From Christensenellales bacterium (GTDB lineage: Bacteria; Bacillota; Clostridia; Christensenellales; CAG-917), in assembly GCA_051883555.1 (NCBI GenBank), contig JBJETY010000028.1:1-58123 (forward strand): DNA of 58,123 nt, in the 5' to 3' direction. Below the pieces are notes generated by a model. It saw only the letters and a program-made list of their open reading frames with translations, made no database searches and was not told where the DNA came from. Numbering within the stretch: the stretch's first letter is position 1; every line of letters begins with the position of its first letter. This document shows, piece by piece, positions 6,686-42,263 of this stretch. The position numbers and the translations under genes were made by a program.

Positions 6686-8992
6686 TCACATATCCGATGA
6701 TATCGCTATATCAAACACCTGATTTACGTTGCTTACGAAGTCAACCTTTACAGAATCCAAAATACATTGCGGAATTTCTTCTATATCCTTTCGGTTTTCT
6801 TCAGGAACTATAACTTCCAATACGTTTGCTCTGTGCGATGCAAGAAGCTTTTCTTTAAGTCCGCCGATAGGAAGCACTCTGCCGCGTAAGGTTATTTCGC
6901 CCGTCATTGATATATCTGCACGAACTTTTTTACCCGTCAAAGCCGAATAAATTGCAGTTGCAAGCGTTATACCGGCAGACGGTCCGTCTTTTGGAGTTGC
7001 TCCTTCAGGCAAATGAACGTGAATATCTTTTGTCGTAAATATCGACTTATCTATGCCGAGCCTTTCTGCATTAGCTTTTAAATACGTCAATGCAGCACGG
7101 CCCGATTCTTTCAATACGTCACCCAACGAGCCTGTCAGAATAAGTTCGCCCTTTCCCTCCATAACGGAAACTTCGATATTTAGCAACGTTCCGCCATAAG
7201 CAGTCCAGGCAAGTCCGGTTGCCGTTCCCACTTCGTCGGCAGGCAATTTTTTATCCTTCACGGTTTTCGGAATTCCTAAAAATTCTTTCAGGTTTTCTTT
7301 TGTTACAAAAACTTTGCTATCTTTGCCTTCAACTATTTTACGAGCCGCTCTGCGCATTATCTGAGCAATTTCTTTTTCAAGTTGACGAACGCCCGCTTCA
7401 TGAGTGTATAAAGAAATTACGTCTTCAACGACTCCCTCTTCGATTTCGACCTGTTCAGACGACAAACCGCAGTTCTCAAGTTGTTTTCTGATAAGATGCC
7501 TTTTGGCGATTTCCGCTTTTTCAATAGGCGTATATCCGCTCATTTCTATAACTTCCATTCTATCCAAAAGCGGTGCCGGAATGCTCTCCATTGAATTTGC
7601 AGTAGTGATAAAAATTACGTCTTTTAGATTAAACGGAATTTCAAGATAGTTATCACGGAAAGTATCGTTCATTTCCGGGTCAAGAACTTCAAGAAGCGCA
7701 GCGGACGGATCTCCGCGATAATCTTTTGCAAGCTTGTCTATTTCGTCAAGCAAAAATACGGGATTCATCGTTCCGCTCTGTTTTATCGTGCTTATAATTC
7801 TACCAGGCATGGCGCCGATATAAGTTTTGCGGTGTCCTCTGATTTCTGCTTCATCGTGAACGCCGCCAAGACTCATTCTGACGTATGCTCTGTCCAGACT
7901 GTCGGCAATCGACCTAACGATTGTAGTTTTACCGACGCCCGGAGGACCGACAAAACATAAAATCGGTTCTCTATGATTCTTACTCATTGCATGCACGGCT
8001 AAAAATTCAAGTATTCTGTCTTTGATTTTATCCAAACCGAAATGGTCACGGTCTAAAATAGATTTAGCCTTAATTAAATCCGAACTGTCCTCGGTGTAAA
8101 TTCCCCACGGTAAATCGAGAACAAAATCAAGATAGTTTCTGATTAAATTAAAATCCGCCGAACTTGGTTGCATCCTTGCCGATTTTTCCAAATCCTTTTG
8201 CAATTTTAGAATATACTCTTCGTCTATAGGCAGATTATTAATTTTGTTTTTATAATCTTCAAAGTCATCGTCACCGCCAAGCTCTTTTTGAATAACGTTC
8301 ATTTTTTCACGAAGATAAGTTTCTTTCTGAGCTTTTTCAAAAGAATTTTTAACCTTCAAAGTTATTCGCCTGTCGATTTTTGCGATTTCAATATCGCGAT
8401 TAATTGTAACCAAAAGATTTTCAAGCATAATCTGCAAACTTGGTTCGCTAATCTGTTTTAACGCCTCTTCATACGGCAGATATGCGTTTACAGCGTTTAC
8501 CAAATCAAGTTTTACACATTTATCCTTGTCGATATCTAAAACAACGTCGGCTAAAAAAGTATCCTGAACGCTTTCTTTATCATTTAAAAATTCAAGCAAT
8601 TTATTGTAAAGAGCGTCGGTTTCGACGCCGCTCAAATCTTTTTCAATAAAATCTTCCACTTCTGCTTCATCGTACGACTCGCCGCGAATTACGTCCGCAA
8701 CGGTTACTCGTCTGATTCCGGCAACGTACAAATTGTAAATTCCGTTTTCTTCGACTGATTCACAAATTGTAGCTACAACGCCTACGCCGTGATAAATAGG
8801 AGTCTGCCCCGCTTTCATATCATAGTTATATTGCGGAACAAGCAAAACGTTTAACCCGTTAGATATAACGTGTTTTGCAACGGCAATAGACTTCTTTCTC
8901 ACAAGCGAAAGTTTAGTAAATTGTCCCGGAAAGATAACCATCCTGCGAAGCGGCAGGATGGGAAAAATTTGTTTTGAATTCTGATTCATCAT
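6686..8992 (-). CDS. lon: ATP-dependent Lon protease
   Basis: Walker A GPPGVGKT, LLDEIDK, catalytic DGPSAG and PIGGLKEK. Confidence 0.97.
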   Translation of the reverse strand: MMNQNSKQIFPILPLRRMVIFPGQFTKLSLVRKKSIAVAKHVISNGLNVLLVPQYNYDMKAGQTPIYHGVGVVATICESVEENGIYNLYVAGIRRVTVADVIRGESYDEAEVEDFIEKDLSGVETDALYNKLLEFLNDKESVQDTFLADVVLDIDKDKCVKLDLVNAVNAYLPYEEALKQISEPSLQIMLENLLVTINRDIEIAKIDRRITLKVKNSFEKAQKETYLREKMNVIQKELGGDDDFEDYKNKINNLPIDEEYILKLQKDLEKSARMQPSSADFNLIRNYLDFVLDLPWGIYTEDSSDLIKAKSILDRDHFGLDKIKDRILEFLAVHAMSKNHREPILCFVGPPGVGKTTIVRSIADSLDRAYVRMSLGGVHDEAEIRGHRKTYIGAMPGRIISTIKQSGTMNPVFLLDEIDKLAKDYRGDPSAALLEVLDPEMNDTFRDNYLEIPFNLKDVIFITTANSMESIPAPLLDRMEVIEMSGYTPIEKAEIAKRHLIRKQLENCGLSSEQVEIEEGVVEDVISLYTHEAGVRQLEKEIAQIMRRAARKIVEGKDSKVFVTKENLKEFLGIPKTVKDKKLPADEVGTATGLAWTAYGGTLLNIEVSVMEGKGELILTGSLGDVLKESGRAALTYLKANAERLGIDKSIFTTKDIHVHLPEGATPKDGPSAGITLATAIYSALTGKKVRADISMTGEITLRGRVLPIGGLKEKLLASHRANVLEVIVPEENRKDIEEIPQCILDSVKVDFVSNVNQVFDIAISSDM

Positions 8993-8999
8993 TACCTCA

Positions 9000-10220
9000 T
9001 TATGCCGTTCTTCTGCGAATTTCAGGGTCTGCCTGTTTCTTGATTACGGCATCGTTTATAACAACTGCTTCAATGGATTTATCCGACGGAATTTCGTACA
9101 TTAAATCGAGCAAAGCGTCCTCAAGAATTGCTCTTAAACCGCGCGCGCCCGTATTCAACTCCATTGCCTTATGAGCTACCGCCTTTAATGCAGAGTCTTC
9201 AAATTCCAAAGCAACGTTATCCATCTTAAACTGAGATTGATATTGCTTTGTCAATGCATTTTTAGGCTCCGACAAAATTTTGACCAATGCGTTTTCGTCT
9301 AAGGCATTGAGACCGACGACAACGGGAATTCTTCCGACAAACTCGGGAATCAATCCAAACTTGATAAGGTCGATTGGCTGAAGTTCCGAAATGAGCTTGT
9401 CATAATCGTAATCGTTTGTTCCTTTAACCGCCGAGCCAAAACCAAGTTTTGAGCTGTCCTTACGAGTATCGACGATTTTATCCAAATCAACGAACGCGCC
9501 TCCGCAAATAAACAAAATGTTTGTCGTATCGATTTGATAACATTCCTGATTAGGATGTTTTCTCCCTCCCTGAGGCGGAACGGAAGCAACTGTTCCTTCA
9601 ATTATTTTGAGCAACGCCTGTTGAACGCCTTCGCCCGAAACGTCACGGGTTATAGATACGTTCTCGCTCTTCCTTGCGATTTTATCGATTTCATCGATAT
9701 AAATAATGCCCTTTTGAGCCCTTTCGATATCGCCGTCGGCAGCCTGAATAAGTTTTAACAAAATATTTTCGACGTCCTCGCCAACGTAACCAGCTTCGGT
9801 TAAAGTCGTCGCGTCGGCAACGGCAAAAGGCACGTTAAGAATCTGCGCCAACGTTTTGGCAAGCAAAGTCTTTCCCGAACCTGTAGGCCCAATAAGCAAT
9901 ACGTTGCTTTTTTCAAGAACGATACCGTCTTTAGGTTTGGAAGCGATACGCTTATAGTGATTATAAACTGCTACGCTAAGAACCTTTTTGGCTGCGTCCT
10001 GCCCGACAATATATTCGTCAAGTTTTTCATTGATTTCTTTCGGCGTACAAAGCGTAATTTCATCGGACATTTTTGCCATTGGAGTCTGCTTATAAATGTC
10101 AAGGCAAGTCTGAATACATTCGTTGCATATATAAAGGCCGTTCGGACCTGCAACTATCTTTTCGACTTCCTTTTCGTCTTTACCGCAAAAAGAACAATGT
10201 AAAGTTTTGATTTCGTCCAT
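9000..10220 (-). CDS. clpX: ATP-dependent Clp protease ATP-binding subunit ClpX
   Basis: C4 zinc finger CSFC...[30 protein letters not shown] loop. Confidence 0.98.
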
Positions 10221-36121: not shown

Positions 36122-36799
36122 ATGAAGATTGCAGTTTATGACAGCGGAATAGGCGGTTTGACAGTCCTTGCCCGTCTGATATCCGCTTTTCCCGATTGCG
36201 ACTATTTATATTATGCCGACAATGCGAATTTCCCTTTCGGGCAAAAAAACGTTAACACTTTGAAAGCTAATATCGCCGATACGGTTAATTTTTTAAAAAA
36301 AGAAAGCGATTTGCAAGTAATCGCATGTTATACCGCCTCAACTCTTATACCTAAAGACAAAACGACCTTTACCGTAAAGCCTGAAATCGAAAACGAAAAC
36401 ACTTTGCTTATTGCAACGCCGAATACGATAAAGAATTTATCGCCAAAATGTAAAATTGCAGATACGCCCTGCCTTGCATACATAATTCAGACAACGCTTT
36501 TGAACGAACGTAATTTTGAGTCGGTCGATAATTATTTGTTCGATACGTTAAGTGAATTTATAAAAACGGAACTCGTATCGATAGGATGCACACATTATAA
36601 CTATATAAAGAAAAACATAAAGGCATTACTCGGTGCGGAAAAAATTCTTGACGGAACCGATTTGCTTTTAGAAGAACTTGATAAAGAAATTTTACCGTCT
36701 GCCCATACAGGAAGACTATCGTTCGGATTTTCGGCAGGCGATGAATCGGAAGTTTATACAAAAATGCTAAAACGAATTTTAAGTCGAGAATTTAATTGA
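36122..36799 (+). CDS. murI: Glutamate racemase-like protein, shortened and divergent
   Basis: YDSGIGGLTV, ADNANFPFGQK, IACYTA, IGCTHY; only 225 aa. Confidence 0.7.
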   Translation: MKIAVYDSGIGGLTVLARLISAFPDCDYLYYADNANFPFGQKNVNTLKANIADTVNFLKKESDLQVIACYTASTLIPKDKTTFTVKPEIENENTLLIATPNTIKNLSPKCKIADTPCLAYIIQTTLLNERNFESVDNYLFDTLSEFIKTELVSIGCTHYNYIKKNIKALLGAEKILDGTDLLLEELDKEILPSAHTGRLSFGFSAGDESEVYTKMLKRILSREFN

Positions 36800-38311: not shown

Positions 38312-38325
38312 TAACGAACAATCAA

Positions 38326-38358
38326 TAAAGACCTACCGTACGGTAGGTCTTTTATTTT
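38326..38358 (+). terminator. Intrinsic terminator of rpsT
   Basis: TAAAGACCTACCG-TA-CGGTAGGTCTTT with T-rich tail. Confidence 0.85.
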
Positions 38359-38692
38359 TAGTTGATTTAAATTGCTTTTATTATTATTGCTAAAATTGCT
38401 TTTATTATTGCTAATAGCTTTTTTCAATAATTTTAAATCGCTTTTAAAAATTGATAATCCCTATCTTTTAACTACTTTTAATTATGTTCAGTATTTATTT
38501 TTTTAAATACTTTCATTATTTAGTATTAAATTTAAGAATTTGTTTTAAGCATTTAAGTTAAGTATTTATTTTAAACATTTAAGTTAAGTATTAAATTTAA
38601 TATTTATTTTATCAAATACTTTCATTATTTTAATTATTCATTATTTAAATCATTAAAATGCTTTAATTGTTTCAGGTAAAAACGCAAAACGG

Positions 38693-39562
38693 TTATCTTG
38701 CATTCCATTTCACGGTTCCGTCTTTTTCAAGCTGTCCCCACTTACCGTCCTTTTTGACCTTTGCCGAGCCGTCTTCAAAAGGCGTAGCCGCGTCGAACTG
38801 AAAATCTACGATAAGTTTATTATTTTTATCTACGTATCCGCATTTACCGTTTTTTACTACCATGGCAAAACCTTCGGAAAAGCTTAATCCCGCTTCATAA
38901 TCGAACGGTATCACCATATTATTGTTTGAATCGATATAACCGCATTTTTCATCGAGTTCGACGAGTGCAAGTCCTTCCTTAAAGGAAAAAACTTCGTCGT
39001 ATACGGGAGGAATGACGTTTTTTATTCCGTCATAAAATCCCCATTTCGTACCGCGCTGAACCTTGCGCCACTCTTCAGGCGGATACGGCGGTTTAAGCTG
39101 TTTGACTTCTTCAACGCCATAATGCGGACGTCCCTCGCCCTGCCTGAGTTTTCCGCTCAAAGTGAAAAATTTACGGTTCGGCAATTTTTCTTCAACTTTT
39201 TCCTGCTTTACAGGTTGAGCGTTTTGTTTAGCCGCTTTATCGTTTGTCTGTTGTTGCGTTTCATGGACTTTTGGTTGGTCGTTTCTTGTCGCAAAAACAA
39301 AGCCCTTTTTGCGTAAACACTTTGAAATTTCAATAAACTGCTTTTTGCCGAACATTTGAATTTTATACATATCCTTTTCGGTCTTTTTGACCAAATCGGA
39401 AGCGGTTTTTAAATTATTATCGAGCAAAAGCTTTAACGTGTTTTCTGAAAGCCCCAATTGTTCGAGCGGAACTTTTCTGGCGGCTTCTTCCATTTTTGCG
39501 TCGTATACGTTTGTTACTTGTGCTTTTTCGCTCTTTTTATAGTAAAATTTCTTTTTAGCCAT
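38693..39562 (-). CDS. RNA polymerase alpha-CTD-like domain plus C-terminal WG repeats
   Basis: aa 32-90 align gaplessly with the alpha-CTD; C-terminal repeats WGFYD/CGYID/CGYVD/WGQLE with F-EG spacers; GGAG RBS before ATG 39562. Confidence 0.75.
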   Translation of the reverse strand: MAKKKFYYKKSEKAQVTNVYDAKMEEAARKVPLEQLGLSENTLKLLLDNNLKTASDLVKKTEKDMYKIQMFGKKQFIEISKCLRKKGFVFATRNDQPKVHETQQQTNDKAAKQNAQPVKQEKVEEKLPNRKFFTLSGKLRQGEGRPHYGVEEVKQLKPPYPPEEWRKVQRGTKWGFYDGIKNVIPPVYDEVFSFKEGLALVELDEKCGYIDSNNNMVIPFDYEAGLSFSEGFAMVVKNGKCGYVDKNNKLIVDFQFDAATPFEDGSAKVKKDGKWGQLEKDGTVKWNAR

Positions 39563-39740
39563 ATTAACTCCTTTTTTAATTATATCAAAAAGGTTTAAAT
39601 ATAGCAATAATTTAAACCAATTTAAAACCGTACAACTCATTTAAAAACATACAACTCACAATTTGACTTCTTCTCTTACGACTTATCTCAAACTTAATAC
39701 ACAGTGCGTCGCAAAGTATTTATTCTTTAAATCTCGGTTG

Positions 39741-39851: not shown

Positions 39852-42263
39852 ATGCATATATTGTCAAACAAAAAATTGAATTATAAAAATAACTTTTCGT
39901 TTTTTTTAGCTTTAACTGCAATACTAATTTTATTTATTGCATTTGTTTTTCCGTGCGTATATAACGACGGCGAAATCGCAAAAGCAGATTCTTCAAATTA
40001 TGAAATAATTTTACCTGCCGGCAATTACGTTCAATTTGCTAATCCCGTCGCTTATTTTTGCGAAAACGGAATACATTACGTAAAAGACGGAAACCGCATT
40101 ATCGTGATTAAAGATACGGATACAATTGATTCAACCGCTTTTATAAATGCAGAATACGACGTCAAATCAATGGTGGTTTTCTTTAATTACCTTATCGTCA
40201 ATACGGGCGAAAAATTCGTAAAAATAAATTTGAACGACAATACGTCTTCCGATTTACTTCTTGAAAACGCAACCGTGGACTACAATCTGCTTAAATGCGG
40301 AAGTTATCTGTTTGCAATTAACCGCATTACCGGAGACACGATAATATACGATTCTACGTTTACAAAAATCAAAAACCAAACGGTAAAAGCATTCACACAG
40401 TGCGAATTATATTCGGCAAACGGTTACGTCTTTTCCGTATGGATTGATTTTAACTTGAGCACGGGCGTACACTTCATTGTCAGCAAAACGTCGCCTGACC
40501 TTACTACCGTAAATCTTTTCGAAATATCTTCTTTAAATAAAATTTACGTCGGAAACTATATCTACGTTTCATCCGACAACGCTCTGACCGCTTACGATGA
40601 AAACGGCAGCAAAGTTTTTACTGCTGAAATACAAACTGAAAACTCGGAAATTTATGCCGAAAACGATAAATTAAACGTTCTTAACAAATCGGAAAAATCT
40701 ATTGATTGCTTTACTGCTACAAAAGACGGCCTGACAATTGAAAAGTCGGTCAGAACAAGCGGCAAAAACGGACATTTCGATAATATAAACGGAGCAATTA
40801 AATCGGGGGATTCTATAGCAGTCGTCGATTCAAACGGTTTATATTTTGAAAACAACTTTATCGAAACTGCAAATTCCGATTCCGTATGTTTTTATAAAGA
40901 AAAAATATGCTATTCAAGCGATAGCAACTTTTTTATAACAGACGGAACAAGCTCTACAATAATCGACGTCGGTTGCAAAATTTCGGATATCGCCGCTTGC
41001 GACGACTTCGTATTTATTTTAACTGAAGACGCCGTATATGAGTTTGACGGACAAAACGTCAAACCGCTCTTAAATTTCGGCGGCAAAAAAATTGCGACGA
41101 CAAAAAGCGGAAATCTCGTTTACGTGCTTAATTCGACCACGGGATTTAAAGCGTTCACAACCGATGGCGAAGAAGCTGTTTTCCCTTTTAACGAAGCTGT
41201 CGACGACGTTATCGATTTCGATATAGATTACGTAGGAAATCTTCTTATTGTCAAAAATAATTCGGCAATAAAATATAAATGTTCTCTTCTGCAATTCGAA
41301 AAAGAAAGCGAAATTGCTCTTTCAAAAGAAAATTACCTTCTCGGCGATATCAAATCCGTTTCCGTTTCCGGCGAAAACGAATTTATCTTTTCAACGACAA
41401 TGAATTTTGTCGGCAAATCTTCCGCGTTTTCTTTTGTTACCGAAAATAACTACGTTCCTACCCTTCCCCCTGAAATTAACAGCGTATGCAATGCCATAAC
41501 GAACAAGCAAACGTTTTTTTACAAAGATTACAAAAACTATGAAAGCGTTGAAGAAATTTCCGACAAATCAAAAATCATATTTCTTGAAAATGCCGATGAA
41601 AATTTTTCATACGTGCTCTGGGGAAATAAAGTCGGATACGTTAAAACGTCAGACGTGACTAAAACCGAAGACGCGTGGAACGGCGACAGCGTTCTAAGAG
41701 TTATGTTGCAAAAAACTCGTCTTTATTACTTCCCTTCACAAGAAAAATCTGAATATATAACCGTTGAAAACGGTACGAAACTTATTATCGTCGGCGAAGG
41801 TTATCAAAACGAGCAAAACTGGTATAAGGTTCAGTACGACGGAAAAAAATATTACGTTATCGTCGCAGGTCTTGCGTTCGACTCGGAACAGGCATTGACA
41901 AACGAAAAGGCCGCATATGGCAGAGCAAAATCGTCTAAGGTCGGCACAAAAGTAGCGTTATACACGCTTCCCGACGAAAAATCCACGCTAATAACAAATA
42001 TTATCGACGGCAAAGAGCTGACGATAATCGGCGAAGAAATAAACGGTTTTTATAAAGTAAAAATCGGCACTCAAACTGGCTACATAAAAACGGAAAATCT
42101 CAAATGGGGCGGATTGACAAACGTACAGATTATTTCAATAACCTGTGCCGCCGTAGCAATTGTTGCGGGAATTATCATTCTAATTGTAACAACAAAATTG
42201 AAAAAGAAAAAAGATTTAGCGAACAAAAACAACGACGATACAAATACTATCCGAAAAATTTAA
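39852..42263 (+). CDS. Surface protein: signal peptide, beta-rich (propeller-like) region, ~3 SH3b-like domains, C-terminal TM anchor
   Basis: Hydrophobic N-terminus ending AKA; WYKVQY, FYKVKIG..TGYI, VGYVKTS; TM helix plus KLKKKK tail. Confidence 0.65.
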   Translation: MHILSNKKLNYKNNFSFFLALTAILILFIAFVFPCVYNDGEIAKADSSNYEIILPAGNYVQFANPVAYFCENGIHYVKDGNRIIVIKDTDTIDSTAFINAEYDVKSMVVFFNYLIVNTGEKFVKINLNDNTSSDLLLENATVDYNLLKCGSYLFAINRITGDTIIYDSTFTKIKNQTVKAFTQCELYSANGYVFSVWIDFNLSTGVHFIVSKTSPDLTTVNLFEISSLNKIYVGNYIYVSSDNALTAYDENGSKVFTAEIQTENSEIYAENDKLNVLNKSEKSIDCFTATKDGLTIEKSVRTSGKNGHFDNINGAIKSGDSIAVVDSNGLYFENNFIETANSDSVCFYKEKICYSSDSNFFITDGTSSTIIDVGCKISDIAACDDFVFILTEDAVYEFDGQNVKPLLNFGGKKIATTKSGNLVYVLNSTTGFKAFTTDGEEAVFPFNEAVDDVIDFDIDYVGNLLIVKNNSAIKYKCSLLQFEKESEIALSKENYLLGDIKSVSVSGENEFIFSTTMNFVGKSSAFSFVTENNYVPTLPPEINSVCNAITNKQTFFYKDYKNYESVEEISDKSKIIFLENADENFSYVLWGNKVGYVKTSDVTKTEDAWNGDSVLRVMLQKTRLYYFPSQEKSEYITVENGTKLIIVGEGYQNEQNWYKVQYDGKKYYVIVAGLAFDSEQALTNEKAAYGRAKSSKVGTKVALYTLPDEKSTLITNIIDGKELTIIGEEINGFYKVKIGTQTGYIKTENLKWGGLTNVQIISITCAAVAIVAGIIILIVTTKLKKKKDLANKNNDDTNTIRKI

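Follow-up and report, generated by a model that had tools for sequence, protein, structure and literature searches.

An alpha-CTD-like domain fused to WG repeats in a conserved protein family of gut Christensenellales

Closest described systems

The C-terminal domain of the RNA polymerase alpha subunit RpoA (alpha-CTD) is among the best-studied regulatory modules of bacterial transcription and is normally regarded as a part of RpoA only. On a contig of a Christensenellales bacterium (JBJETY010000028.1, assembly GCA_051883555.1), which was analysed as one stretch of 58,123 nucleotides (the window), a gene encodes a protein of 289 amino acids (aa) that joins an alpha-CTD-like domain, called the head in the following, to a WG-repeat domain. 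An earlier note, made from the letters alone, had described this architecture and had proposed that the protein acts as a decoy for partners of the alpha-CTD. The observation and the domain assignment are solid, while the decoy mechanism is not supported. The protein is also not unique to the window, because it is a member of a family that is conserved and visible in databases, yet unstudied.

The alpha-CTD of RpoA (PF03118; B. subtilis 1z3e and 3gfk, E. coli 1lb2) resembles the head in its two helix-hairpin-helix (HhH) motifs, which agree with a root-mean-square deviation (rmsd) of 0.9-1.4 Å over 60-65 residues. The head lies above the gathering cut-off of PF03118, retains the hydrophobic core and the equivalents of K297, K298 and E302, and is followed by a flexible linker. 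In contrast to RpoA, the protein has no N-terminal assembly domain, and its alpha-CTD-like domain is N-terminal, not C-terminal. The linker is strongly basic and about 70-110 aa long, whereas that of RpoA has about 15-20 aa. The head lacks R265, N268, N294 and S299, has other 261 and 287 surfaces and is about 30% identical to the alpha-CTD of the host.

Alpha-CTD-type domains outside RpoA already have a precedent in the databases. The BREX kinase PglW (NF033442/PDLC02512) contains an alpha-CTD-type HhH segment, and aa 10-114 of the window protein align to positions 774-888 of its profile, but PglW is a defence kinase of about 1400 aa without WG repeats. Proteins of 111-140 aa from phage metagenomes, named 'RNA polymerase, alpha subunit, C-terminal' in BFVD, superpose at 0.8-1.0 Å; unlike the window protein, they have a single domain and no WG repeats. 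No functional study of the PglW segment or of these phage proteins was found in the literature. Full-text searching also returned nothing relevant on the architecture, on alpha-CTD paralogues or on decoys, so that the earlier note's remark that no such system had been described agrees with the lack of any publication found on it.

With other WG_beta_rep proteins (PF14903), the window protein shares three canonical 34-residue units and a very high score against the hidden Markov model. Typical members are long, contain many repeats and are often lipoproteins or secreted, or are accessory to retrons, whereas in the window protein the array is short and fixed, with about 3.5 units, an export signal is absent and an alpha-CTD-like head is present. 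From a PDB sequence search and the literature, no function or solved structure is known for WG_beta_rep. By analogy only, ComEA-type HhH DNA receptors and RodZ-type adaptors may be compared, which combine a small helical binding domain, a basic linker and a second module with envelope machinery. These are, however, membrane-anchored and have other folds (HHH_3, Xre-HTH), while the window protein has neither a transmembrane segment nor a Pfam match to those families.

The head as an alpha-CTD fold

The open reading frame (ORF), its coordinates and its sequence were as the earlier note had given them. The gene and the parts of its product are placed as follows:

38693 to 39562, minus strand: coding sequence of the alpha-CTD-like/WG-repeat protein, 289 aa, stop codon at 38693-38695 (ORF list and translation)
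39533 to 39562, minus strand: basic-aromatic N-terminal motif MAKKKFYYKK (MANKKFYYKN in the family), continued by a basic spacer to aa 24 (115-member alignment)
39293 to 39490, minus strand: alpha-CTD-like HhH domain, aa 25-90 (PF03118, NCBIfam and PDB searches, AlphaFold2 (AF2) and Foldseek)
39089 to 39292, minus strand: disordered linker rich in K, Q, E and P, aa 91-158, about 68 aa (predicted local distance difference test (pLDDT) of 43-65 in both AF2 models)
38696 to 39088, minus strand: WG beta-repeat domain, aa 159-289, with a part unit, three full units and a closing strand (PF14903, AF2)

Pfam matches the head to RNA_pol_A_CTD (PF03118) with 38.4 bits (gathering cut-off 23.8; E 1e-9), aa 25-84 lying on positions 7-66 of the 67-position profile, and a precomputed match to the same family is present in most relatives. 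A Pfam scan of the 289-aa protein at E<=10 gave nothing beyond RNA_pol_A_CTD and WG_beta_rep and, in particular, no other HhH family. Six of the 11 NCBIfam matches at E <= 10 are rpoA equivalog models, which are met at their C-terminal ends only (E <= 3.3e-5; 17-37 bits against cut-offs of 228-523). Three further rpoA/rpoC models follow at 1.4e-4 to 7.6e-3, and the others are the PglW model, matched in its HhH segment, and PRK07758, a model of 95 residues that is matched weakly (E 0.14). The significant matches of a PDB sequence search (phmmer) were all alpha-CTDs of RpoA. When a profile of the head built from 22 family members was compared with the PDB, RpoA chains took the top 51 places, the best of them Firmicute alpha-CTDs (1.7e-13 to 4e-11), and the first other HhH protein appeared at E 0.23.

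AF2 was run twice, with alignments of 36 and 115 sequences, and the results agree. In the predicted structure, aa 22-90 are confidently helical (pLDDT 84-96), disorder covers aa 95-155, and the beta domain comprises aa 160-289. By Foldseek, the predicted head matches the B. subtilis alpha-CTD 1z3e_B with a TM of 0.88 and an rmsd of 1.4 Å over 65 residues; the rmsd is 0.9 Å over 60 residues for 3gfk_B and 1.3 Å for 8hvr_K.

A generic HhH fold, which the earlier note had raised as the alternative to its own assignment, was looked for and is ruled out by the Pfam scan at E<=10 and by the 51 RpoA chains ahead of any other HhH protein. The N-terminal domain fused here to WG repeats, outside RpoA, has a genuine alpha-CTD fold, and it is a paralogue that has diverged from the C-terminal domain of Firmicute RpoA. 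The alignment in the earlier note has to be corrected in its extent, since the peptide quoted there corresponds to aa 32-88 of this minus-strand product and not to aa 32-90; the domain match itself stands. According to Pfam, the assembly domain of RpoA (RNA_pol_L, RNA_pol_A_bac) is absent from the 289-aa protein. Because this domain is missing and a true rpoA is present elsewhere in the genome, the protein is not an RpoA.

DNA-reading and partner surfaces

Reading of UP elements by the alpha-CTD depends on the '265 determinant', which consists of R265, N268, N294, G296, K298, S299 and E302. Positions are given in E. coli numbering, in a gapless register in which G72 of the window protein corresponds to G296; in the E. 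coli sequence used for this, the landmark residues agree with the published numbering. The window protein retains three of the seven residues (G296, K298 and E302), whereas R265 is changed to N, N268 to K, N294 to M and S299 to Q, all of which the earlier note had read correctly.

Conservation was tabulated for 119 family members, and the UP-element-reading residues are lost across the family. Position 265 is A, S, T, N, P or K and in none of the 119 members Arg, position 268 is Glu in 56%, position 294 is Gly in 91% and position 299 is Ile or Met. Asn occupies position 296 in 92%, and Gly at this site is confined to the clade of the window. The second hairpin has kept its charged residues, with Lys at 297 in 99%, Lys or Arg at 298 in 99% and Glu at 302 in 98% of members.

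On the partner surfaces, the equivalent of position 261 is Gly in 87% of members. The position that corresponds to A267 and to B. subtilis Y263, presumably the key Spx contact (1z3e work), is variable (C/R/L/V/A). Positions 287-290 read K-D-M-Y in the family as compared with V-E-L-L in E. coli and D-D-M-L in the host RpoA. They are part of a conserved, family-specific stretch, T-E-K-D-M-Y-(K/R)-(V/I)-Q, which spans the positions of the 287 determinant and where K63, D64, Y66, K67 and Q69 form a conserved surface patch.

The genuine rpoA lies on contig C8 of the same genome and encodes 317 aa with a CTD of 103 bits (VRSYNCLK...NLGRKSLEE), in which all seven canonical residues are retained. By hand count, 19 of 63 residues of the head are identical to this host alpha-CTD (about 30%), and BLASTP of the one against the other gave no alignment. 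A recent duplication of the host rpoA CTD is ruled out by these two results.

Tail, linker, WG domain and location

In the N-terminal tail, M1, A2, K5, Y7 and Y8 are conserved to at least 90% in the 115 aligned members, and the pLDDT of 52-66 indicates that the tail is not folded. The linker was noted earlier as Q/K-rich, and it is indeed rich in K and Q and predicted to be disordered over its approximately 68 aa. Averaged over blocks of 10 residues, its pLDDT is 43-65, and values below 50 occur at aa 97-115 in the first AF2 model and at aa 100-107 and 129-145 in the second. Family-wide, linkers contain 19% K, 13% Q and 9% E and range from 6 to 134 aa. They carry a short motif (RKFFTLSGKL in the window protein, family consensus SKFGLADR) in 77 of the 119 members; docking of this motif onto either domain is not predicted, even with the 115-sequence alignment.

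WG_beta_rep is matched in three stretches with E 1.6e-32 and 111.6 bits (gathering cut-off 25.6), and the genome scan scored the three units at 49.8, 44.8 and 35 bits. The 'about four' WG repeats of the earlier note are, more exactly, three full Pfam units preceded by an N-terminal part unit, WRKVQRGTKWGF. AF2 predicts an all-beta domain with three strands per 34-residue unit (pLDDT 96-98), for which Foldseek finds weak matches to beta-propeller blades (hemopexin, clathrin terminal domain, BamB, PROPPINs). The predicted TM score (pTM) of 0.48-0.51 in both models means that the two domains have no fixed mutual orientation, and according to these models the WG domain folds independently of the head.

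The charge is unevenly distributed along the protein. Median net charges in the family are +6 for the tail, +2 for the head, +7 for the linker and -5 for the WG domain, as compared with -3 to 0 for the CTDs of RpoA. Tail, head and linker together thus reach about +15, and the N-terminal 160 residues are strongly cationic.

Hydropathy revealed no signal peptide, lipobox or transmembrane segment in the window protein, as the earlier note had stated for the signal peptide; no 19-residue window exceeds a Kyte-Doolittle value of 0.85. The N-terminus is polar and basic (MAKKKFYYKKSEKAQ), and the highest N-terminal 12-residue value has a family median of 0.77. A 19-residue maximum of about 1.5 occurs in a few members, among them P0002, a public gene call with an over-extended start, and no export signal is evident family-wide. 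The protein is predicted to be cytoplasmic.

Distribution and selection

By a word-indexed search, 260 clusters at 90% identity were obtained, of which nearly all have 270-340 aa and both Pfam domains. Where they are named, their members are called 'WG repeat-containing protein' and come from metagenome-assembled genomes (MAGs) of Clostridia. The distribution of the architecture, listed by the earlier note among its checks, was determined by a scan with one genome per species, in which at least 168 genomes encode a relative. From these, 80 loci were kept, on which the locus counts given below are based, and all 80 derive from uncultured gut or rumen Clostridia with Christensenellales-type labels (CAG:917, CAG:475, CAG:238, Limadaptatus, 'Christensenella sp. 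UBA...').

Among 201 genomes sampled evenly across the order, 50 contain full-length matches (E<1e-36), and these 50 are every sampled member of nine out of 42 family-level groups. In the remaining genomes of the order, only their own rpoA CTD or unrelated WG proteins were matched. Approximately 370 genomes from the rest of the class Clostridia gave WG-only matches and no two-domain protein. In the source genome (1.49 Mb, 96% complete), this protein is the only WG protein. A profile search of the whole library returned 13,953 clusters at 50% identity with E<=1e-30, nearly all of them multi-WG proteins; among the top 150 clusters, about eight are full-length two-domain ones, and long multi-WG proteins dominate, so that this search mainly reflects the abundance of WG repeats.

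Mean pairwise identity within the family is 74% for the WG domain as compared with 56% for the head. Longer members contain no third fused domain, their extensions being of low complexity only. Against orthologues of 80% identity, dN/dS is about 0.06 with saturated dS, and the gene is under purifying selection. The family is conserved, vertically inherited, lineage-specific and core-gene-like in its clade. PHROGs gave no match for the protein, and the sole PADLOC match was one of 20.6 bits to the HhH segment of PglW. An origin from a defence island or a phage is ruled out by this outcome together with the vertical distribution and the housekeeping neighbourhood.

Start codon and promoter

39579 to 39607, minus strand: sigma-A-type promoter TTGCTA-17-TGaTATAAT with an extended -10 box and a leader of about 15 nt (consensus scan, 10/12)

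Translation starts at the ATG at 39562, with an AAGGAG ribosome-binding site (39568-39573) 5 nt upstream, and all orthologues begin with MA(N/K)KKFYY. A longer ORF of 315 codons from 39640 was rejected as an over-extended start, because the -10 box falls within the extra part. Public gene calls place the start of an orthologue (P0002, 313 aa) further upstream in the same way as the 315-aa ORF of the window does (39563-39640). The peptide of this over-extension looks hydrophobic and could pass for a signal sequence.

Upstream of about 60 orthologues, a recurrent promoter was found, consisting of TTGCTTGAAA, a spacer, TGTGnTAATAT, a leader of about 10-15 nt and AAAGGT. A second conserved motif, GTCAA(G/C), about 17-20 bp beyond this promoter, is the -35 box (TTGAC) of the divergent gene on the opposite strand, so that in most relatives the -35 boxes of both genes are arranged back to back with about 17-20 bp between them. 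These approximately 60 upstream regions revealed no separate operator motif, only the two promoters being conserved in them, and repeats in the longer divergent spacer of the window are at the chance level for AT-rich DNA. The strong extended -10 promoter and the very short leader suggest a steady and fairly high expression. In the one RNA run that was located, 15% of the words of the gene were present.

Neighbouring genes

39852 to 42263, plus strand: divergent gene, whose 803-aa product has a hydrophobic segment at each end, two SH3_3 domains and an ectodomain that is beta-rich and propeller-like (Pfam SH3_3)
38312 to 38692, no strand assigned: intergenic stretch of 381 bp with 18.6% GC and short tandem repeats, between the stop codon of the alpha-CTD-like/WG gene and rpsT (TRF)

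The gene for the propeller/SH3b protein is divergent and adjacent in 75 of the 80 loci. No Pfam or NCBIfam family covers the main body of its product, and the orthologue at locus L036 shows weak PQQ_2/NHL matches. The protein evolves fast, with 20-30% identity across the family. Homologues were found in at least 35 of the 201 genomes of the order, and 31 of the 35 belong to families that also possess the alpha-CTD-like/WG protein, a count that is confounded with distance from the query.

On the other side, a gene for an S8 subtilase (600-690 aa, hydrophobic segments at both ends) lies downstream on the same strand in 67 of the 80 loci, or in 62 of the 70 with enough room. Most of the 67 gaps between the two genes measure about -50 to +25 nt, and at those loci the two genes therefore form an operon; around a fifth of the gaps extend up to about 300 nt, and two are about 2.95 kb. 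The best NCBIfam resemblance of the subtilase is to the mycosin of the type VII secretion system (T7SS), with 85-108 bits against a cut-off of 279. A conserved vertical family with a fixed neighbourhood of envelope proteins goes beyond the single-sequence view of the earlier note.

In the lineage of the window (the window and loci L003, L004, L005 and L079), the S8 gene is absent from the position downstream of the alpha-CTD-like/WG gene. The 381-bp spacer found there instead contains two tandem repeats, one with 2.9 copies of a 26-bp unit (38525-38600) and one with 2.4 copies of a 24-bp unit (38349-38409). No remnant of an S8 pseudogene was found in it by tblastn, and in the closest relatives the stretch is not conserved, the rpsT terminator excepted. 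Just after rpsT, a perfect hairpin with an 11-bp stem, AAAGACCTACCGTACGGTAGGTCTTT (38327-38352), is terminator-like on both strands, and it is the sole terminator-like site between rpsT and the convergent alpha-CTD-like/WG gene. The source genome does possess a full-length S8 homologue with 32% identity on contig C52 (G000:C52:95521-97287; locus L083 4471-6519), which has 682 aa with a long acidic C-terminal tail and lies beside gltX and radC. In this lineage, the operon link to S8 is broken by relocation or replacement.

Further on, 45-59 of the 80 loci continue with rpsT, gpr and a murI-like gene. Since these genes are also kept nearby, the region is a slowly rearranging core segment, and synteny alone is therefore weak evidence of function. 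The murI-like (glutamate racemase) gene of the window (36122-36799, plus strand) is short (225 aa). With 100 bits it stays below the TIGR00067 cut-off of 147, and no Pfam family matches it, so that the gene either is truncated or has diverged.

Both usual neighbours are missing beside the six most divergent members, which are followed by ABC-transporter genes (L008, L011, L073 and L082) or by MreB/Mbl (L077 and L078); L008 and L011 retain S8 further on. In the former four, an ABC ATPase and a permease, fused in L008, come directly after the alpha-CTD-like/WG gene, and in L082 they are followed by a Big_2 surface protein of 897 aa. In L077 (7891-8889) and L078, which represent the most divergent subfamily (36% identity), the start of MreB/Mbl is 45 nt downstream of the alpha-CTD-like/WG gene, and upstream of the latter there is a weak STAND-type NTPase in divergent orientation, an arrangement seen in these two related genomes only. 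A general link to MreB was rejected, as the adjacency occurs in only these two of 80 loci and as the match of window ORF 30917 elsewhere is an ABC ATPase. At L064 (CP091723, a long-read MAG; 6986-9861), the orthologue and S8 are both split by frameshifts into several ORFs, most likely by indel errors of long-read sequencing and not because they are pseudogenes.

Possible functions

The protein is neither a subunit of RNA polymerase nor a faithful copy of the alpha-CTD of its host. Our preferred explanation, which is tentative and which we regard as possible rather than probable, is a polycationic tethered adaptor that binds nucleic acid or a partner and is linked to an envelope gene cluster. 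The protein would act as a tether in which a flexible linker joins the cationic alpha-CTD-like half to the WG domain. The cationic half would use the lysines of the HhH hairpin and the basic tails to bind nucleic acid, most probably duplex DNA, with little sequence specificity, and the WG domain would hold a conserved partner or ligand. Such an arrangement would follow the logic of RpoA, with an anchor domain, a flexible linker and a mobile alpha-CTD, in reversed order. Binding of nucleic acid is suggested, with low confidence, by the fold, the retained lysines and the charge; the head keeps the fold together with the Lys-Lys pair and the Glu of the second hairpin (equivalents of K297, K298 and E302). 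The partner or output would most likely be connected with the envelope module of propeller/SH3b protein and subtilase, because the gene keeps its place next to the genes of these two type-I-like membrane proteins and as a rule shares a transcript with one of them.

Several points weigh against this explanation. The loss of R265 and the acidic residue at position 268 in most members argue against DNA reading in the manner of the alpha-CTD, and RNA or anionic lipid would be equally conceivable targets of the positive charge. The neighbours lie almost wholly outside the cytoplasm, with short and poorly conserved cytoplasmic tails, and a direct physical link from them to a cytoplasmic protein is not obvious. 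Synteny within one order may reflect inheritance and not function, as rpsT, gpr and murI are conserved nearby as well. The S8 linkage is lost in the lineage of the window, and the most divergent members adjoin ABC-transporter or MreB genes. Moreover, we know of no ligand for WG repeats.

Alternatively, the protein could be a local one-component regulator, in which the alpha-CTD-like domain binds DNA, the WG repeats sense a ligand, and the divergent propeller/SH3b gene and its own subtilase operon are controlled. The divergent layout with the gene in first position of an operon is classic for local regulators, and a fold of a DNA-binding type is joined to a repeat domain that could bind a ligand. 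We nevertheless consider this doubtful: the conserved intergenic motifs are the two promoters only, with -35 boxes about 17-20 bp apart and no operator-like repeat seen, DNA binding by HhH domains is usually not sequence-specific, R265 is missing, the strong promoter looks constitutive and is unusual for a low-copy regulator, and the gene is retained where S8 has moved away. Recruitment of the alpha-CTD fold in one order of gut Clostridia for a transcription-linked factor, either as an 'extra alpha-CTD' acting in trans through the TEKDMYKVQ surface or as a one-component regulator whose WG domain senses an envelope-linked signal, is rather unlikely. An accessory factor of RNA polymerase, whose WG domain docks on the polymerase or on a regulator and so provides an additional alpha-CTD-like arm in trans, appears unlikely, even if the architecture mirrors the order of anchor, linker and CTD in RpoA, Firmicute alpha-CTDs are the closest relatives of the head, distribution and promoter are of a core-gene and strong housekeeping type, and the patch at the 287 determinant (K63, D64, Y66, K67 and Q69) is conserved and specific to the family. 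There is no evidence of a contact with the polymerase, the gene has no linkage to transcription genes, and the head lacks the DNA-reading residues through which a third alpha-CTD could be of use at UP elements.

The mechanism proposed in the earlier note, a mimic or decoy that titrates Spx, NusA, activators or phage proteins under control of the WG domain, could draw on the true alpha-CTD fold outside RpoA and on the small free-standing proteins of this fold in phage metagenomes, which indicate that the fold is used outside RNA polymerase. We judge it very unlikely. A mimic is expected to keep the partner surfaces of its host, but the head carries a different conserved surface, with a family-specific sequence in the 287 region, Gly at the 261 equivalent and a variable residue at that of B. 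subtilis Y263. Position 265 is never Arg, the host alpha-CTD is so distant (about 30% identity) that BLASTP does not see it, and an old vertical core gene without PHROG match and with only the PglW HhH segment in PADLOC is neither mobile nor phage-linked. Hardly to be expected, finally, is an exported or surface protein that acts with its envelope neighbours, whether it attaches to extracellular DNA or the cell wall or serves the mycosin-like subtilase as a substrate. In favour of this, WG-repeat proteins are frequently secreted or lipoproteins, the two conserved neighbours belong to the envelope, and the best resemblance of S8 is to a T7SS mycosin. However, that match is far under its cut-off, no secretion motif was recognised, and export, which the earlier note had set against its own proposal, finds no counterpart in the hydropathy of the window protein or across the family, as far as sequence can tell.

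Meaning for the family

The family represents a stable and strongly selected alpha-CTD paralogue outside RNA polymerase, which is core-like in nine of 42 family-level groups of an abundant and almost uncultured gut order. Its head has exchanged the DNA-reading residues for others and has gained a new conserved surface. Should the protein turn out to be only a generic basic DNA-binding adaptor, the value of the finding would be modest and annotational. Identifying what the new surface and the WG domain bind would provide WG repeats, found in tens of thousands of proteins, with their first function and would show whether the alpha-CTD fold has uses beyond RNA polymerase.

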